Positions 11,536-32,303 of a DNA stretch of 43,102 nt are shown here, piece by piece. This stretch comes from Candidatus Uhrbacteria bacterium CG_4_10_14_3_um_filter_41_21 (lineage in GTDB: Bacteria; Patescibacteriota; Patescibacteriia; UBA9934). Positions within the stretch are counted from its first letter, which is position 1. Every line of letters begins with the position of its first letter. The notes under the pieces are model-generated. The model made no database searches. It was not told where the DNA came from and worked only from the letters and a program-made list of their open reading frames with translations. Location: the NCBI GenBank assembly GCA_002782865.1, contig PFJC01000004.1, forward strand, positions 1 to 43,102, read 5' to 3'. Both the position numbers and the translations under genes were made by a program.

Positions 11536-12306
11536 TTATATTGCTTTTTCGTCAATTGCCATTTCTTTTAAGGATTTTACCAATATCTGCCAATTATTAG
11601 CTGTCAGATCCTTTAGTTTGATGGCATTTTGAAGCTCAAATTTTCCAATTGAGGTTCGCTTTAAATTGCGCAGATAGCCAACAGTCCCAAGCTCTGCTGC
11701 TAGATCACGAGCTAAGGCTCGGACATAAGTTCCAGAGGAGCATTTAATATGTGCGCTTATGATTTGTGTTTTTTGCTCAACAGGTCTCCCGGAGACCTGC
11801 GGAATTTTGGGTTCGATCATGGTGAATTCTTTGACTCTAATTTTACGAGGCTCAACCCGGACTTCTTCACCTTTACGGGCTGACTTGTACAATCGTTTAC
11901 CCCCGACTTTGATGGCGGAGTGCATTGGTGGTATTTGATCGATCTCGCCGGTGAGTTTTTTCATCGCGTTTTCGATTTCATCGCGCCGTAGGGGCGTATG
12001 ACCATACGCCCCTACGCGATTAAAAATCACCTCGGTTTCTGTATCCAAACTTGCAGTGGTTGCACCAAGCACAATTTGCGCTTCGTAGGTTTTGTCCATT
12101 CCAACAAACTTTGAAATCTCTCTGGTGGTCTCACGACCAATGGCTATAATCAAAAGTCCGGTGGCAAATGGATCAAGCGTACCAGCGTGACCAATTTTTT
12201 TAATGCCTGTCAGTCTGCGCAAAACATCAACAACATCGTGGCTGGTAATCCTCGCCGGCTTGTCGATAAGAATAAAACCTGATTGTGGATCGGTCGTGTT
12301 TAACAT
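11536..12306 (-). CDS. truB: tRNA pseudouridine(55) synthase TruB (short, no PUA domain evident)
   Basis: GFILIDKPARITSHDVV and the catalytic GHAGTLDPFATGLL motif, plus QIPPMHSAIKVGGKRLY. Confidence 0.9.
   Translation of the reverse strand: MLNTTDPQSGFILIDKPARITSHDVVDVLRRLTGIKKIGHAGTLDPFATGLLIIAIGRETTREISKFVGMDKTYEAQIVLGATTASLDTETEVIFNRVGAYGHTPLRRDEIENAMKKLTGEIDQIPPMHSAIKVGGKRLYKSARKGEEVRVEPRKIRVKEFTMIEPKIPQVSGRPVEQKTQIISAHIKCSSGTYVRALARDLAAELGTVGYLRNLKRTSIGKFELQNAIKLKDLTANNWQILVKSLKEMAIDEKAI
11988..12015. repeat. perfect 13-bp-arm GC-rich palindrome inside the truB reading frame
   Basis: GTAGGGGCGTATG-AC-CATACGCCCCTAC, translated on the minus strand as VGAYGHTPL. Confidence 0.85.
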
Positions 12307-18150: not shown

Positions 18151-18200
18151 GAGGGGTCGTTTTTCGTTTTGGGGGACGACAATCTCAACCTGGAGCGAAG

Positions 18201-18506
18201 ATGTCTGACAAGATCCGTGTGCGTGTGAAGGCCAACACCCATCGCAACCAACCCGTGGTCGTTGAAGTCGAGATCAGCGATTTCAATGATCCCCGACTCA
18301 CCGAACTCGTTCAGGGCTCGAAGGTCAAGATCGAGATCGAGATCGAAGAGCCGACGGAGGCGCAGGCGTCGCTTCTCGGGCGGCTCATGTTCTTGAGCTC
18401 ACCGGATGCCGTGGCCGACATTGGCAAGTCGGTTCCGCCCTCGACGCGCAAGACCGAGGATTTCCCGGTCGAAGTCATGATCCTGAACCTGCGCAAGCCG
18501 GTTTAA
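18201..18506 (+). CDS. upstream part of an RNA polymerase alpha-CTD-like gene (unknown N-terminal domain), ends at in-frame TAA
   Basis: GC-rich codon usage. The C-terminal residues ILNLRKPV align with the start of the alpha-CTD motif. Same reading frame as 18522-18758. Confidence 0.5.
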   Translation: MSDKIRVRVKANTHRNQPVVVEVEISDFNDPRLTELVQGSKVKIEIEIEEPTEAQASLLGRLMFLSSPDAVADIGKSVPPSTRKTEDFPVEVMILNLRKPV

Positions 18507-18521
18507 GTCCTCGAGCCCTCG

Positions 18522-18758
18522 GTGCGTGCTGCAAACAGAATCGAGGATCATTTTGATGGCATGCGAATCGACGAGATTCCGCTCTGGAGGGTCTGCGAGC
18601 TGGGCGAAGACGAGATTCTCAAGCTGAAGAACTTCGGTCGGTCGAGTTTCAAGCAAACGAAAGAGGCTCTCGACGAGCTCGGCCTCCGTCTCGGCATGAG
18701 GGATTTCATCGAGGAGCACAAGATCGAGATCCTTCGTCAGGAAACCGACCCCGACTGA
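18522..18758 (+). CDS. RNA polymerase alpha-subunit C-terminal-domain (HhH)-like segment
   Basis: VRAANRIED...LKLKNFGRSSFKQTKEALDELGLRLGM compared with E. coli RpoA CTD [10 protein letters not shown]...[28 protein letters not shown] (from memory). Only a GTG start and no RBS are available. Confidence 0.55.
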   Translation: MRAANRIEDHFDGMRIDEIPLWRVCELGEDEILKLKNFGRSSFKQTKEALDELGLRLGMRDFIEEHKIEILRQETDPD

Positions 18759-18760
18759 TC

Positions 18761-18829: not shown

Positions 18830-18847
18830 CACATGAACCGCCCCTAC
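18830..18847. repeat. half unit of the CCCCTAC palindromic family
   Basis: CACATGAACCGCCCCTAC. Confidence 0.6.
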
Positions 18848-19055
18848 GATTTCCTCTCCCCATTCAGAGGAGGCCGATAGGCCGACGAAGAATCTCTTTG
18901 TGTCTCCACCCCGGACCTGCCTGCCCGTCCGAAGCCCGAAGGGCGAAGGCGGGTTCCGGGGCCCAGCGACTTTCGTTAGGCACCGGCACTACGGCCGGTG
19001 TGGAAATGAGGGAGGGAACGATTGTGAGTAAAGTGAAGCAATCTCAATTCTTAAC

Positions 19056-19081
19056 GGGCGGACACATGGGTCCGCCCCTAC
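19056..19081. repeat. full unit of the CCCCTAC palindromic family
   Basis: GGGCGGAC-ACATGG-GTCCGCCC followed by CTAC. Confidence 0.8.
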
Positions 19082-19111
19082 GGTAATCAATTTCGTACAT
19101 CCAATTCGATT

Positions 19112-19135
19112 GGACACGGCATGCCGTGTCCCTAC
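19112..19135. repeat. variant unit of the CCCCTAC palindromic family
   Basis: GGACACGGCATGCCGTGTCC is a perfect 20-nt palindrome, followed by CTAC. Confidence 0.7.
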
Positions 19136-19136
19136 G

Positions 19137-22085: not shown

Positions 22086-23411
22086 ATGTTTAAAATCACA
22101 CCCAGTCGAGTTCTCCGAGTTGTTTGTGTAAGTTTTTTATTTCTAACAATTCTGCTGGCGCTTACTTTTGATCATCAATCTAAAGTATCGGATTTTTATG
22201 GTCAAAGTGTTCGAATATCTGGAACAATTGTTGATATTGATTACTCTGAAACGCGTCAGAAAATTATTGTCTATTACTTATTAATTGATGACGCTGAAAT
22301 AAAAGATCGAATTATAATCTTTGCCCCACTTTATCCGCCGTTGTCTTATGGTGATCTAATATCAACCCGTTGTCTGCTCGAAAAACCAGAACCTTTTGAG
22401 GAATTTCGTTACGACAGATATCTAGCTGCAAAAAAAGTTTACGCCACCTGTTTTGTAAATAGCGTTCCACTTAAATTAGATTCAGGAAAAGCAAATCAGA
22501 TTAAAGATATAATTTTAAGATCGCGCGCGTTATTTATCTCTCATCTGGATAAAACTTTCGGTGAACCTCACGGCTCATTGCTGGCCGGATTGTTGCTTGG
22601 TGAACAAAGATTTACCGATGAATGGCAAGAAAAGTTTTTACGAACCGGAACAACTCATATTGTGGCGGCCTCCGGCTACAATGTTTTTGTAGTTGTGTAT
22701 TTAATGACAGGCTTATTGGCTTCATTTGGCATTAAAAGATCGCGCGCAATTTCTTTAATGGTCGCCTCGGTTGTTTGCTATGTAATTTTAGCCGGAGCCG
22801 ACGCGGCTGTGGTTCGCGCCGGCGTAATGGGGATTTTAGTTTTGCTTTCAAGATATTTGGGTCGAAGCTCAACCATGGTAAATGTTTTATTGATCACGGC
22901 CAGTCTGATGTTGCTTGAAAATCCGTTGATGATTTTTGATGTTGGCTTTCGCTTATCAATGTTTTCAACCATCGCGCTGATTTATCTTGCGCCGGTAATC
23001 GACAAGAAGTTGAAATTTATCCCAAAGACTTTTGAAATTCGCTCATCAATTTCGGCCACACTGTCAGCTACATTTATGGCATTGCCAGTGATTCTTTTAA
23101 GTTTTAAAAGTTTTTCATTTGCAAGCATAATTACAAATCTTTTAATTTTGCCGTTTATTCCATATGTGATGGGGTTAGGGGCGCTGGCAGTTGCGACAAG
23201 TTTTTTAAATGTTCAGATAGCGGCGATTGTTAGCGGACCGGCTTGGGCGATTCTGTCAGTCATGCTTTGGGTGATTAAAACAGTGTCAGATTTACCGCTG
23301 TTTATTTCCAATATTCCAGTGTGTATATCGGTGGTCGTCACAATAATTTGGATTACTAGCGTTTATATATTATGGAAATTGATTGGAAAAAAATACTACG
23401 CCTTTGTTTAG
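22086..23411 (+). CDS. comEC: ComEC/Rec2 DNA-uptake channel: N-terminal OB-like region plus transmembrane competence domain
   Basis: FLRTGTTHIVAASGYNVFVV competence-domain motif with many TM helices. It ends inside an A7 tract that overlaps the next ORF. Confidence 0.8.
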   Translation: MFKITPSRVLRVVCVSFLFLTILLALTFDHQSKVSDFYGQSVRISGTIVDIDYSETRQKIIVYYLLIDDAEIKDRIIIFAPLYPPLSYGDLISTRCLLEKPEPFEEFRYDRYLAAKKVYATCFVNSVPLKLDSGKANQIKDIILRSRALFISHLDKTFGEPHGSLLAGLLLGEQRFTDEWQEKFLRTGTTHIVAASGYNVFVVVYLMTGLLASFGIKRSRAISLMVASVVCYVILAGADAAVVRAGVMGILVLLSRYLGRSSTMVNVLLITASLMLLENPLMIFDVGFRLSMFSTIALIYLAPVIDKKLKFIPKTFEIRSSISATLSATFMALPVILLSFKSFSFASIITNLLILPFIPYVMGLGALAVATSFLNVQIAAIVSGPAWAILSVMLWVIKTVSDLPLFISNIPVCISVVVTIIWITSVYILWKLIGKKYYAFV

Positions 23412-24229
23412 CTCTGTTTTGGCTGATGGCGATTTTTGTCTGCGCTCAAGGTTTTGTTTCCGGAACTTTATTTTCAGACGAGCGGATTTCAGTTTGGGTT
23501 TTTGATATTGGACAAGGCGATTCGATTTTTATTGATGCGCCTAATGCTCAGGTTTTAGTTGACGGCGGACCAACAAGTGAGGTAGTTGAAAAGCTAACAA
23601 GTGTTTTACCGTTTTGGGATAGAAAGCTTGATTTGATAATTAATACTCATCCACACGCTGACCATGTGACTGGTTTGGTTTCAGTTTTGCAAAGATACCA
23701 AGTTAAAGAAGTTTGGGTGAGCGGACAGGAATATGATTCTGATGTATTTGAATATTTTGAAAAACTTGGCGAAGTCGAAGTTGTGGGCGCCGGCGCAATT
23801 TATAATCTTGGCGCCGGCGCCACCTTGGAAATAGTTTGGCCTGAAGTATCTGTCGAAAATCAAATTTTTGAAGATCCAAATGACGATTCATTAGTTGCGA
23901 TTTTAGTTTATAACGGAACTCGAATATTGCTAACGGGTGACATTGGTTTTGAACAGGAAAATCAATTAACAGAAATTGGCGATATTGATATTTTAAAAGT
24001 TGGTCATCATGGTAGCAGCTCGGCCACCGGTTCTTTATTTTTGGAATCAATAACTCCAGAATATTCAATAATTTCAGTAGGTATTAACAATTCATATAAC
24101 CATCCGAGTCCGGTTACACTCGACCGTCTTCGTTTAATTGGCTCACAAATTTTTAGGACTGATACTCAAGGCGATATACATATTTTGCTAGATAAAGAGG
24201 GTTATAAGGTAACAAGTTTTGAATTGTGA
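23372..24229 (+). CDS. comEC: ComEC C-terminal metallo-beta-lactamase domain as a separate ORF
   Basis: One TM helix, then VWVFDIGQGDS, INTHPHADHVTGL and KVGHHGS motifs. Confidence 0.8.
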   Translation: MEIDWKKILRLCLALFWLMAIFVCAQGFVSGTLFSDERISVWVFDIGQGDSIFIDAPNAQVLVDGGPTSEVVEKLTSVLPFWDRKLDLIINTHPHADHVTGLVSVLQRYQVKEVWVSGQEYDSDVFEYFEKLGEVEVVGAGAIYNLGAGATLEIVWPEVSVENQIFEDPNDDSLVAILVYNGTRILLTGDIGFEQENQLTEIGDIDILKVGHHGSSSATGSLFLESITPEYSIISVGINNSYNHPSPVTLDRLRLIGSQIFRTDTQGDIHILLDKEGYKVTSFEL

Positions 24230-28266: not shown

Positions 28267-30372
28267 ATGCCCCGAGAATATTCATTAGATAAAACACGCA
28301 ACATCGGAATCATCGCTCATATTGATGCTGGAAAAACTACCGTAACAGAGCGCATTCTGTTTTACACCGGTAAAAAGCACAAAATTGGTGAGGTGCATGA
28401 AGGTGAAGCAGAAATGGATTGGATGGAACAGGAGCGTGAGCGTGGAATCACTATCACATCAGCCGCAACTACTTGTTTTTGGAATAATCACAGAATTAAC
28501 ATTATTGACACTCCGGGCCACGTTGACTTTACAGTTGAGGTTGAACGATCTCTTCGAGTTTTGGATGGCGGAGTAACGGTTTTTGATGGTGTTGCTGGTG
28601 TTGAACCACAGTCTGAAACTGTTTGGCACCAGGCTGATAAATATCATGTTCCACGGATTTGTTTTATCAATAAACTAGACAGAACAGGAGCAGATTTTAT
28701 GAAAGACTTGGCCTCGATCAGGGCTCGTCTAACTAAAAACGCTCACCCTATTCAGTTGCCAATCGGTAAAGAAGATAAGTTTGAAGGAATTATTGATTTG
28801 CTTAAAATGAGAGCTTTTTATTATCGCGATGAGCAAGGAAAAATTGTTGAAGAAGTTGATATCCCTGCAGAGTATCTTGAAGAAGCAAAGAAATGGCGCG
28901 CTTCTTTAATAGAAGCTATTGTTGAAAACGACGAAGTTGCAATGGAGAAATACTTTAATGGAGAAGAGCCTTCATTTGAAGATCTAAAAAGAATTTTGCG
29001 TCAAGCAACAATCAAATCAAAAATTTTCCCAGTTCTTTGTGGATCGGCTTTAAAAAACAAAGGAGTCCAGATGATGATAGATGGAGTTGTTGATTATCTC
29101 CCATCCCCACTTGATGTTCCGCCAATGGAAGGATTTGATCCAGATGATAAGGAAACTATAATCACTCGATCGGCTGATGATTCAGCGCCATTTTCTGCTT
29201 TGGCTTTCAAAATCGCAACCGATCCATTTATTGGTCGTTTAGCTTTCTTGCGAGTGTATTCAGGAAATTTAAAAGCTGGAAGTTATGTGCTCAACACAAC
29301 TACTGGAGAAAAAGAACGAATTTCAAGAATTGTTCGAATGCATGCCAATGCCCGAGAAGATGTTAACGAAGTTTTCTCAGGCGAAATCGTAGCTGCCGTG
29401 GGACTTAAAAACACAACAACCGGAAATACACTTTGTGATGCTGAAAAACCAATTGTTTTGGAATCAATTACATTCCCAGAGCCAGTTATTAGTCAAGCGC
29501 TTGAGCCAAAGACGAAAGCTGATCAAGAAAAAATGAGTATTGCTCTTCAAAAATTGGCAGAAGAAGACCCAACTTTCAGAGTCAGAACTGATGAAGAAAC
29601 AATGCAAACTATTATTTCAGGAATGGGAGAATTACATCTTGAAATTTTGGTCGACAGAATGAAGCGCGAGTTTGGCGTTGAGGTAAACGTTGGTAAACCT
29701 CAGGTTAGTTATCGTGAAACAATCAGAGAAGAAGCTGAGGGCGAAGGAAAATACATCAAACAATCCGGAGGTCGTGGTCAATACGGACATTGTTGGTTGC
29801 GAATCGCGCCAATTACCGAGGCTGATGAAGATGGCGAGATTCCAAACTTTGCATTCATTGATGCGATTAAAGGTGGAGCGATTCCAAAAGAGTATATTAA
29901 TCCGATCGAAAAGGGTGCTCGTGAAGCAATGGACCGCGGTATTGTAGCCGGATATCCATTAATTAATGTTCAGGCAACAGTATATGACGGTTCATATCAC
30001 GATGTTGACTCAAACGAGGCAGCCTTTAAGATGGCAGGTTCAATGGCTTTTAGAGCGGCTGCTCAAAAAGCAAAACCAGTTTTGCTTGAACCAACTATGA
30101 AAGTCGAGGTTGTAACCCCGGAAGAATCAATGGGAACTGTGGTAGGAGATTTGAACGCAAAGCGCGGTCAAATTCAAGAGATGGGAGAACGCGGTGACAT
30201 TAAAACAGTTCGCGCAATCGTACCTTTAGCTGAAATGTTTGGTTATGCAACCAGCTTGCGATCAATGACTCAAGGACGAGCTAGCTACACTATGGAATTT
30301 AATGAGTATAAAGAAGTGCCAAATAATGTTGCTAAAGATATTATTGAAAAACGCGGCGGAAGCGCTAGATAA
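28267..30372 (+). CDS. fusA: elongation factor G
   Basis: [22 protein letters not shown], and full five-domain length of 701 aa. Confidence 0.97.
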
Positions 30373-30384
30373 GATAAAGAGTTA

Positions 30385-30428
30385 AAATGACATCCTCCCC
30401 GGGCTTAAGCCCGGGGAGGATGTCATTT
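30385..30428 (+). terminator. 20-bp perfect hairpin after fusA
   Basis: AAATGACATCCTCCCCGGGC-TTAA-GCCCGGGGAGGATGTCATTT. Confidence 0.65.
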
Positions 30429-31081: not shown

Positions 31082-32260
31082 ATGGCAGAACAGTTTAATA
31101 GATCAAAGCCAAATGTAAATGTTGGTACAATTGGTCACGTTGACCATGGTAAAACAACGCTTACTGCTGCTTTGTCAAAGCTTTTTTCACCTGCAGGTCA
31201 AACTAAAGCATTTGATCAAATCGATAACGCTCCAGAAGAAAGAGAGCGTGGTATCACTATTGCAACTTCACACGTTGAGTACGAGTCAGATGCTCGTCAT
31301 TATGCTCACGTTGATTGTCCTGGACACGCTGACTATGTTAAAAACATGATCACCGGTGCTGCCCAAATGGACGGTGCAATTTTGGTAGTTTCTGCTGCAG
31401 ACGGCCCAATGCCTCAAACACGAGAGCACATCTTGCTTGCAAGACAGGTTGGAGTGCCAACAATTGTAGTATTTTTGAATAAAGTTGACATGGTTGATGA
31501 CCCAGAGCTTATTGACCTTGTTGAAGAAGAAATCCGAGATTTATTGAAGCAGTATGAATATCCAGGAGATGAAACTCCTATTATTCGTGGTTCCGCTCTT
31601 AAGGCTATAGAAGATGGTGGTGATGCTGAGCAGCCGATTAGGGACTTGGTAAAGGCTCTTGATGAATACATTCCAGTGCCTGTTCGAGATGTTGAAAAGC
31701 CATTTTTGATGCCAATTGAGGATGTTTTCTCAATTGAAGGACGAGGAACAGTTGTTACCGGTCGTATCGAACGCGGCATAGTTAATATTGGTGATGAAGT
31801 TTCATTGATTGGTCTTCGAGATACTACAAAAACAGTTGTAACTGGAATTGAGATGTTTAACAAACAGCTTGATAAGGGTATGGCTGGAGACAATGCTGGT
31901 ATTCTTTTGCGTGGTGTTAAGAAAGATGAAATTGAACGCGGAATGGTACTCGCAAAACCAGGATCAGTTACTCCACATAAGAAATTCACTGCTCAGATTT
32001 ACGCTTTGACCAAAGAAGAGGGTGGACGACACAAACCATTTTTCAAGGGTTACAAGCCACAATTCTATATCAGAACAACTGATGTAACCGGTGATGTAAT
32101 TTCACTTGGAGAAGGTGTAGAAATGGTTATGCCTGGCGACACTGTCAATGTTGATATTGAGCTAGGAAAACCAGTTGCTATGGAAGAAACTATGCGTTTT
32201 GCTATCCGAGAGGGTGGTAGAACTGTTGGTGCAGGATCTGTAACTAAAATTATTGAATAA
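31082..32260 (+). CDS. tuf: elongation factor Tu
   Basis: [30 protein letters not shown]. Confidence 0.98.
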
Positions 32261-32264
32261 TGAA

Positions 32265-32303
32265 AGTAGGGAAAGGTCGAAAGGTCTTTCCCTACTTGAT
32301 TTG
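32265..32303 (+). terminator. hairpin after tuf
   Basis: AGTAGGGAAAG-GTCGAAAGGT-CTTTCCCTACT followed by TGATTTG. Confidence 0.55.

Follow-up and report, generated by a model that had tools for sequence, protein, structure and literature searches.

This locus raises the question of how a GC-rich perfect palindrome came to be translated in the middle of truB, the gene for tRNA pseudouridine-55 synthase. The gene occupies 11536-12306 on the minus strand of contig PFJC01000004.1 from Candidatus Uhrbacteria bacterium CG_4_10_14_3_um_filter_41_21; "the window" is used below for the whole 43,102-nt stretch that was analysed. Its 256-amino-acid product matches Pfam TruB_N (E = 1.8e-45) as well as TruB_C_2, and the nearest named TruBs are those of Patescibacteria and Uhrbacteria (source names 'TruB [Patescibacteria group bacterium]' and '[Candidatus Uhrbacteria bacterium]'). 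The answer proposed here, with a probability of roughly 80%, is that a short, dispersed hairpin of the repetitive extragenic palindromic (REP) type, tagged with GTAG, has left a copy here, sitting in frame in a permissive TruB loop of a genome of the Patescibacteria, or Candidate Phyla Radiation (CPR).

The core of the palindrome, at 11988-12015, reads GTAGGGGCGTATG-AC-CATACGCCCCTAC and encodes VGAYGHTPL within the truB reading frame, exactly as a preliminary description of this DNA had claimed. The outer C and G pair too, so that the perfect palindrome runs from 11987 to 12016, with 14-nt arms, a 2-nt centre and 100% complementarity. GTAG abuts the stem at 11988-11991 and CTAC at 12012-12015; written with its tags, the unit is GTAG-GGGCGTATG-AC-CATACGCCC-CTAC plus one C/G pair per side, the stem GGGCGTATG/CATACGCCC extending 9 bp past the tag and the core measuring 28 nt in total. 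On the coding strand the codons AAT CGC GTA GGG GCG TAT GGT CAT ACG CCC CTA CGG CGC give N-R-V-G-A-Y-G-H-T-P-L-R-R, residues 96-108, and the palindrome itself is translated from the minus strand as R97-VGAYGHTPL-R107.

The palindrome is real and far beyond chance. The window has a GC content of 41% and holds only three perfect palindromes with arms of at least 12 nt and a loop of at most 10 nt. With arms of at least 10 nt there are eight, against a mean of 0.58 in dinucleotide shuffles, and the octamer GTAGGGGC occurs seven times where 0.35 occurrences are expected. Folded as DNA, the truB palindrome scores -17 kcal/mol (z = -5.2). The unit is not an assembly artefact, because an independent metagenome contig of the same species, L144, which is 99.91% identical over 2278 nt, carries it with one single-nucleotide polymorphism (SNP). 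When L144:802-1572 was set against window 11536-12306, one of the two SNPs in the 2278 nt fell on the palindrome base beside the centre, a C to A change that makes H102 an N. A stem SNP between strains hints at relaxed constraint or at a raised mutation rate at the hairpin.

The structure of the protein was predicted with AlphaFold2 from 120 homologues, with a mean predicted local distance difference test score (pLDDT) of 89.3, and on this model the unit occupies a loop, probably a permissive one at the surface. Residues 96-107 are modelled as coil save for a 3-residue turn, between a short strand (94-95) and a helix (108-117), and the block pLDDT at the palindrome loop is 79-82 vs 93-97 in the adjoining blocks. 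The site had been described as a variable stretch before the G(D/E)I(D/E)QIP motif, possibly a surface loop and about five residues longer than in E. coli TruB; its variability and extra length hold. Measured from the strand ending near F95 to the helix starting near D109, the gain is four residues relative to M. tuberculosis TruB (1SGV) and five relative to T. maritima TruB (1R3E). Among the 119 nearest TruB homologues the D88-G120 segment has a mode of 29 residues (69 sequences have 28-30), vs 33 in the window. VGAYGHTPL probably has no catalytic role, and the palindrome would be neutral for TruB.

The same gene holds a second, unrelated GC-rich palindrome at 11781-11799, written CAGGTCTCC-C-GGAGACCTG on the plus strand, with 9-nt arms. 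It is translated as QVSGRPV (residues 170-176) in a second variable TruB loop, where the F161-C189 segment is 29 residues long in the window vs a mode of 22 in the homologues, seven residues longer. The pLDDT in this loop (residues 164-179) falls to 69. Among the sequences compared, this palindrome was found elsewhere only in L144.

The first palindrome is a member of a family that is spread widely over other genomes and follows the formula GTAG-GGGCGTAT-NNNN-ATACGCCC-CTAC, 28 nt long. A scan of one genome per species with GTAGGGGCGTAT-N(0-10)-ATACGCCCCTAC returned at least 120 genome stretches with this GCGTAT-stem family, and the exact window 28-mer was found in 17 metagenome stretches, all from unrelated organisms; both results bear out the claim that the palindrome is a repeat element standing in frame. 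The metagenome scan with the exact 28-mer returned no further contigs of the window organism. Among the matches listed, 66 of 128 copies are the canonical 28-mer GTAGGGGCGTATTGCAATACGCCCCTAC and 15 have a GGCC centre; the window centre, which reads GGTC on the coding strand, differs from GGCC by a single synonymous transition. The unit is identical in genomes of more than 20 phyla that range from 32 to 69% GC. The hosts listed include Cyanobacteria, Planctomycetes, Chloroflexi, Bacteroidota, Omnitrophota, Atribacterota, Nitrospirota, Acidobacteria and CPR bacteria (Kuenenbacteria, Falkowbacteria), and the cyanobacterial hosts include the cultured Trichormus sp. NMC-1 and Stigonema ocellatum SAG 48.90. 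Many copies stand in frame within genuine genes of other genomes, for example CarB, Lgt (in one Kuenenbacteria genome) and an Eco57I-like methylase.

The boundaries of the family are sharp at GTAG...CTAC: the flanks of 127 copies carry at most 0.08 bit per position, and no target-site duplication, direct repeat or insertion motif was found beyond chance around them. A miniature inverted-repeat transposable element was considered and rejected, as there is no target-site duplication and the C and G flanking the truB unit are mutually complementary, not a direct repeat. Two side observations concern other copies of the unit. An Omnitrophota metagenome-assembled genome (L035:1495-3765) has two in-frame copies in one long open reading frame (ORF), translated as VRAYRNTPLR and VGAYRNTPLR. 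In nine soil metagenome contigs (L127, L129, L130, L132, L133, L134, L138, L140 and L143) the exact window 28-mer has the same position, some 26 codons inside an open frame that lies upstream of a gene for a conserved membrane protein; this is one copy that is stably inherited vertically across related soil strains. Full-text literature searches with the unit and its peptides (GGCGTATTGCAATACGCC, GRMQYAPT, AYCNTPL and others) found no paper, none was found on the spread of the unit across phyla, and searches on palindromes in CPR genes returned nothing relevant.

The closest known system is that of GTAG REPs and REPINs with their RAYT (TnpA-REP) transposases (PMC2817692, Nunvar 2010; PMC3116915, Bertels & Rainey 2011; PMC3733652). 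In both, GTAG lies beside a GC-rich stem-loop of 20-40 nt; in both, there are singletons and inverted dimers, mostly just downstream of genes, with occasional copies in ORFs, truB included; and both have a family-level tie to an HUH/Y1 transposase. The truB unit has the tag, GT[AG]G at 0-2 nt from the stem base, and the structure of the class, 20-40 nt in all, with 6-13 bp of GC-rich stem closed by a short loop. It is not extragenic, whereas the other units of the window are, and the published GTAG-REP surveys accept intragenic exceptions (PMC3733652). The GTAG- and CGTC-tagged REP superfamilies were defined by Di Nocera et al. 2013, who list intragenic REPs that include copies in truB of S. 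maltophilia, E. litoralis and S. alaskensis (Sala_0541, residues 169-177), and who recall that R. conorii truB carries RPE-1 (PMC3733652). Because such copies are on that list, events of this kind, with a REP in frame in truB, are already known. Four things set the present unit apart from the published GTAG REPs: it is tagged at both ends (GTAG...CTAC), and its palindrome takes in the tag; more than 20 phyla share the identical 28-mer, which is not lineage-specific; the RayT-like genes of this family hold the unit within the ORF rather than flanking it; and the host here is a CPR bacterium, from a group outside those surveys.

The preliminary description had likened the unit to the Rickettsia palindromic elements (RPEs), and part of that comparison stands. 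RPEs, reportedly described by Ogata et al. in 2000, are the classic analogue: here too a palindromic repeat lies in frame in a housekeeping gene of a reduced genome, is translated and is tolerated in a surface region. RPE-1 is about 100-150 bp long and encodes 30-50 residues, whereas the truB unit has 28 nt and encodes 9-10. RPEs are not known to have a transposase, whereas the family of the truB unit is tied to a RayT-like enzyme. There is no sign that the two are related in sequence, although no RPE sequence was aligned. Identity with RPEs was rejected, since the unit is far shorter; its precise class is the GTAG-tagged REP superfamily. Single-strand transposition of the IS200/IS605 type, with its hairpin derivatives, is similar in its HUH-Y1 hairpin recognition and in making no target-site duplication. 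It differs in that the truB unit has no insertion-sequence body and no distinct left and right ends, the whole unit being one 28-nt hairpin, and in that no conserved target tetranucleotide lies beside the unit copies.

The comparison of orthologues covered the 119 nearest TruB homologues, and DNA was recovered for nine palindrome-bearing ones. Most of the 119 have neither the peptide nor a palindrome at the unit site, and few carry any. Palindromes nevertheless recur at the same two TruB loops. At loop 1, P0006, whose protein is 65% identical and whose gene has 55% GC, carries the same unit as the window with one stem mismatch (GTAGGGGCGTATG-AC-CATACGTCCCTAC), and P0004 has a decayed copy of it; these two have a similar peptide, and no orthologue was seen that encodes the same peptide without the palindrome in its DNA, the case that the preliminary description had named as refuting its reading. 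The units at loop 1 are GTAGGGGCAAGGCG-T-CGCCTTGCCCCTAC in P0013, GTAAGGGCATGGCGCGCCATGCCCCTT in P0002 and GTGGGGGCGGG...CCCGCCC in P0090. The palindrome of P0040 at this loop is of another type; it is perfect, spans 36 nt (GCGTACGATTTGGTCCGG/CCGGACCAAATCGTACGC, L147:916-951) and is translated as AYDLVRPDQIVR. P0042 shares the loop peptide of P0040, and P0037 and P0073 have a related peptide, VRPDQIV. At loop 2, P0002 carries an intact GGGCGTATTGCAATACGCCC and P0004 a decayed one, P0028 has GGGCAACC-ACATGG-GGTTGCCC-CTAC, P0011 has CCCCTCCTTACGAAGGAGGGG and P0065 has a hairpin of the GGNCCTATA type; with the window's own 11781-11799 palindrome this makes five palindrome families at the second loop. 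In P0046 the second loop holds a G- and P-rich insertion of 43 residues (LPLPLIRKEGGSNPELASPPSQGGGGGGC...), which, judged from its sequence, suggests several repeat units stacked in one loop.

When the window is compared with P0006, 32% of third codon positions agree outside the unit, vs 8/9 within it, and the conservation of the unit is therefore at the DNA level. A rough neighbour-joining tree, without support values, places the window, P0002 and P0004 in one clade and P0006 and P0013 in a separate one. Two possible markers of insertion were tried and rejected. Loop length alone does not serve, since a separate TruB clade has a native 33-residue loop (of the EGHRIIVTKDEL type) without the V-G-A ... 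P-L peptide, as seen at the protein level. Nor does the apparently inverted orientation of the window unit (centre GT) relative to that of P0006 (centre AC) prove independent insertion, since two different single transitions from GGCC explain it equally well.

A candidate for the mobilizing enzyme was found among the neighbours of the unit in other genomes. When all ORFs of the 120 listed loci were clustered, there was one specific recurrent neighbour, a Y1 protein of 180-200 amino acids in 7 of the 120 loci (L007:2799-3428, L020:5846-6391, L048:2855-3361, L084:7638-8000, L107:2253-2774, L150:10001-10570 and L151:6850-7398). In five of the seven the unit lies inside the Y1 gene, directly past the HUH strand, in the arrangement PNHxHGIIxI-unit-FRSPSxTI. 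Two of three proteins tested pass the Pfam Y1_Tnp cut-off of 23 bits, at 27.3 and 24.1; the NCBIfam REP_Tyr_transpos score is 67 bits, under its cut-off of 80, and the JGI name of the protein is 'REP element-mobilizing transposase RayT'. The best solved match of the family profile is E. coli TnpA(REP) (PDB 4ER8, E = 8e-6); a search of the PDB with a single RayT-like sequence gave no match. The alignment of this family, which is one of other genomes and not of the window, conserves PNHxHG and VWQRNYYEH, that is, the HUH motif, the catalytic Tyr and the WQ.(R/N)(F/Y)(W/Y)EH pattern of RAYTs.

The family has at least 7989 matches at E <= 1e-10. By pattern matching on proteins, 100 of 119 close RayT homologues have a palindrome-type peptide past the HUH motif, and it appears in two frames, VGAYxxTPL-like in 45 and RGVxxYAPT-like in 55, with several stems and sometimes two copies. 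The DNA of two further members confirms the embedded palindrome (GTAGGGGCACGTTGCAACGTGCCCC and GTAGGGGCGACCGGCCGGTCGCCCCTAC). The truB palindrome may be an offshoot of a RayT-like family that keeps a master 28-nt GTAG...CTAC hairpin inside its own coding sequence, past the HUH strand; we put this forward tentatively, as a possibility with the odds somewhat against it. No paper was found on a REP inside a RAYT ORF, in a searchable literature that is limited.

The proposed history of the truB copy runs as follows. Units of this class would fold into hairpins in single-stranded DNA, where RayT/TnpA(REP)-like HUH-tyrosine (Y1) transposases would recognise the GTAG tag and the stem. Such enzymes would cut and join single strands and make no target-site duplication. 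For a copy in coding sequence to survive, the net change in length would have to be divisible by three, the frame would have to avoid the TAG within the tag, and the site would have to tolerate about 10 extra or different residues; these filters would leave the two loops in truB. In the window, the 28-nt unit would have replaced about 16 nt between strand 94-95 and helix 108-117, for a net gain of four residues, with translation as VGAYGHTPL. That a RayT moved the unit into this truB, and that insertion came before trimming, we infer.

The length arithmetic of the loop bears on how the unit arrived. The window has gained a net 12 nt at loop 1 relative to the 29-residue mode; for P0006 the gain is 6 nt and for P0013 it is 9 nt, and about 16 nt of the earlier loop are missing in the window (about 16-22 nt across the three). 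P0006 has a 28-nt unit and P0013 a 29-nt unit, and each fills exactly 30 nt from the same codon. Because 28 nt is not a multiple of three and the net gain is only 12 nt, this was no pure in-frame insertion, and some 16 nt of old loop are gone. The suggestion that the loop had been replaced rather than simply extended thus holds up. The lengths support a putative replacement of part of the TruB loop, with which both trimming after insertion and recombinational overwriting fit.

The overwriting alternative seems unlikely to us, and it survives better than the other rivals. It holds that the loop was overwritten from another copy, through short-patch recombination, gene conversion or template switching and without any insertion by a transposase, and that later swaps between members sharing the GTAGGGGC/GCCCCTAC ends explain the differing stems at one site. 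It would account for the lost 16 nt and for the shared 30-nt span of P0006 and P0013, and it is favoured by the different stems that a single clade (window, P0004 and P0002) carries at the same site and by the lack of a RayT gene in the window. However, there is no homology beyond the unit that could guide such an exchange, the flanks of the 127 copies being random, and the family is tightly tied to a Y1 transposase elsewhere. Insertion followed by a selected frame-restoring deletion would also yield the same end state.

Several observations weigh against insertion of a mobile hairpin all the same. Simple cut-and-join insertion by itself leaves the loss of about 16 nt unexplained, and it does not explain why units of 28 and 29 nt both fill exactly 30 nt. 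The shared site also fits the turnover of one old insertion instead of repeated insertion, and the neighbour-joining tree is crude. The window holds only one other copy with the same stem, a decayed one. Finally, a tblastn search of the window and of 10 relatives' truB loci found no RayT-like gene, and small CPR genomes may lack one entirely.

Another possibility is that the hairpin is a selected cis-acting structure in the truB mRNA or DNA, for example a site of RNase processing or of stability, a pause in translation that helps TruB to fold, or an internal attenuator. The predicted RNA hairpin is very stable (-31.6 kcal/mol in a 70-nt context, z = -4.1), hairpins recur at the same two places of orthologous truB genes, and the unit DNA is conserved far above the synonymous sites elsewhere in the gene, as the third positions show. 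Against this, a hairpin is missing at that site from most of the 119 nearest orthologues, those that are present come from unrelated families, some of them decaying (P0004, P0002), and one of the two strain SNPs falls in the stem. The identical unit also occurs in unrelated genes and spacers across phyla. Past the hairpin the coding strand continues with GGCGCGATG and the opposite strand with GCGATTAAAAAT, with no T-run; a terminator and promoter scan did not call it as a terminator on either strand; and an Rfam scan of the whole window found only three tRNAs, with no match at the palindrome. An intrinsic terminator was rejected on the grounds of the missing T-run and the negative scan, and a cis-acting role in general appears quite improbable.

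Less probable still is that VGAYGHTPL is an adaptive insertion at the protein level, such as a new contact surface, with the DNA palindrome incidental. The segment has been kept in frame in at least three lineages (window, P0006 and P0004), which such a role would explain. But the DNA unit is read in two frames among the RayT homologues (45 and 55 of 119), the orthologues differ at the site (VGARRRLAPT and VRAWRAMPL), the local model confidence is lower at the segment, and one strain has N in place of H102. The idea that the palindrome arose by chance in a native loop, or is an artefact of assembly, has nothing in its favour save the short length of the unit, and is effectively refuted by the 14-nt arms (vs about 0.6 palindromes per shuffle with arms of at least 10 nt), by the recurrence of the exact 28-mer in unrelated genomes and by the independent assembly that carries the unit.

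The rest of the window shows where such hairpins usually lie. It has nine GC-rich perfect hairpins with arms of at least 8 nt, of which seven are in the non-coding 13% of the window and only two are truly intragenic, both of them in truB; this agrees with the earlier remark that the unit type is otherwise intergenic here. The 43 kb covered contain one decayed copy with the same stem and about six other GTAG-tagged hairpins. The GCGTAT stem is common only to that one copy, at 42772-42797 on the plus strand (GTAGGGGCGTAT-TA-CATACGC, 3' end lost), which lies in an intergenic position 4 nt past the stop of a 423-amino-acid ORF at 41497-42768; the other units bear the GTAGGGGC tag with different stems. 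An inverted pair of GTAG-tagged REP units with the tags outermost, as in a REPIN, lies at 2223-2284 between rpmF (L32) and nusB and reads GTAG-GGGCGACC-CCATGT-GGTCGCCC ... GGGCAAGC-ACATGG-GCAGGCCC-CTAC. Three REP-like units with a single tag lie on the minus strand at 18830-19136, in the GC-rich spacer upstream of leuS: a decayed one ending CCGCCCCTAC at 18847, then GGGCGGAC-ACATGG-GTCCGCCC-CTAC at 19056-19081 and GGACACGG-CATG-CCGTGTCC-CTAC at 19112-19136. A further palindrome, AAGTAGGGAAAG-N10-CTTTCCCTACTT at 32264-32297, lies just past a 392-amino-acid ORF (31082-32260); it has GTAGGG/CCCTAC ends and an AT-richer stem, and its membership in the family is uncertain.

Three more features of the window were recorded. 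Next to the three units upstream of leuS, the stretch 18200-18760 is GC-rich (the 18-20 kb bin has 51% GC vs 41% for the window) and has two small ORFs; it falls between a rhodanese gene and leuS, ahead of the REP-like units. One of the two small ORFs was tested and had no Pfam match, and the stretch may be foreign DNA. The longest perfect palindrome of the window, 44 nt at 30385-30428 (AAATGACATCCTCCCCGGGCTT / AAGCCCGGGGAGGATGTCATTT), is of a different family and lies just past a 701-amino-acid ORF at 28267-30372. An inverted repeat without the GTAG tag, GGCGCCGGCGC-N14-GCGCCGGCGCC at 23786-23821, lies inside a 285-amino-acid ORF (23372-24229) and is translated as VVGAGAIYNLGAGA.

Taken by itself the truB case is ordinary and only modestly new: once more a housekeeping enzyme tolerates selfish hairpin DNA, in translated form, in a surface loop. 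The points for which no published description was found are the spread across phyla and the RayT arrangement with its embedded substrate. The case extends the phenomenon to the Patescibacteria/CPR, a group with tiny genomes in which mobile DNA is usually regarded as scarce. The TruB orthologues of CPR bacteria, in which the same two loops have accepted at least nine different palindromes, make a natural map of what the fold tolerates. They also carry a warning that the loop peptides are driven by DNA and are not adaptive motifs, and VGAYxxTPL and RGVxxYAPT segments, which will go on turning up in annotation and in protein family models, should be recognised as repeat-derived. If RayT-like genes with a cognate hairpin in their own ORF are new, they pair an enzyme with its substrate and would make REP recognition and spread directly testable. 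Were the truB unit indeed an offshoot of such a family, the gene would carry its own substrate, and horizontal transfer would explain the identical 28-mers in more than 20 phyla. There would then be thousands of natural enzyme-hairpin pairs from which to read the recognition code, and even in minimal CPR genomes such units would be sown into essential genes at loops that permit them, with the TruB loops as recurrent landing pads.

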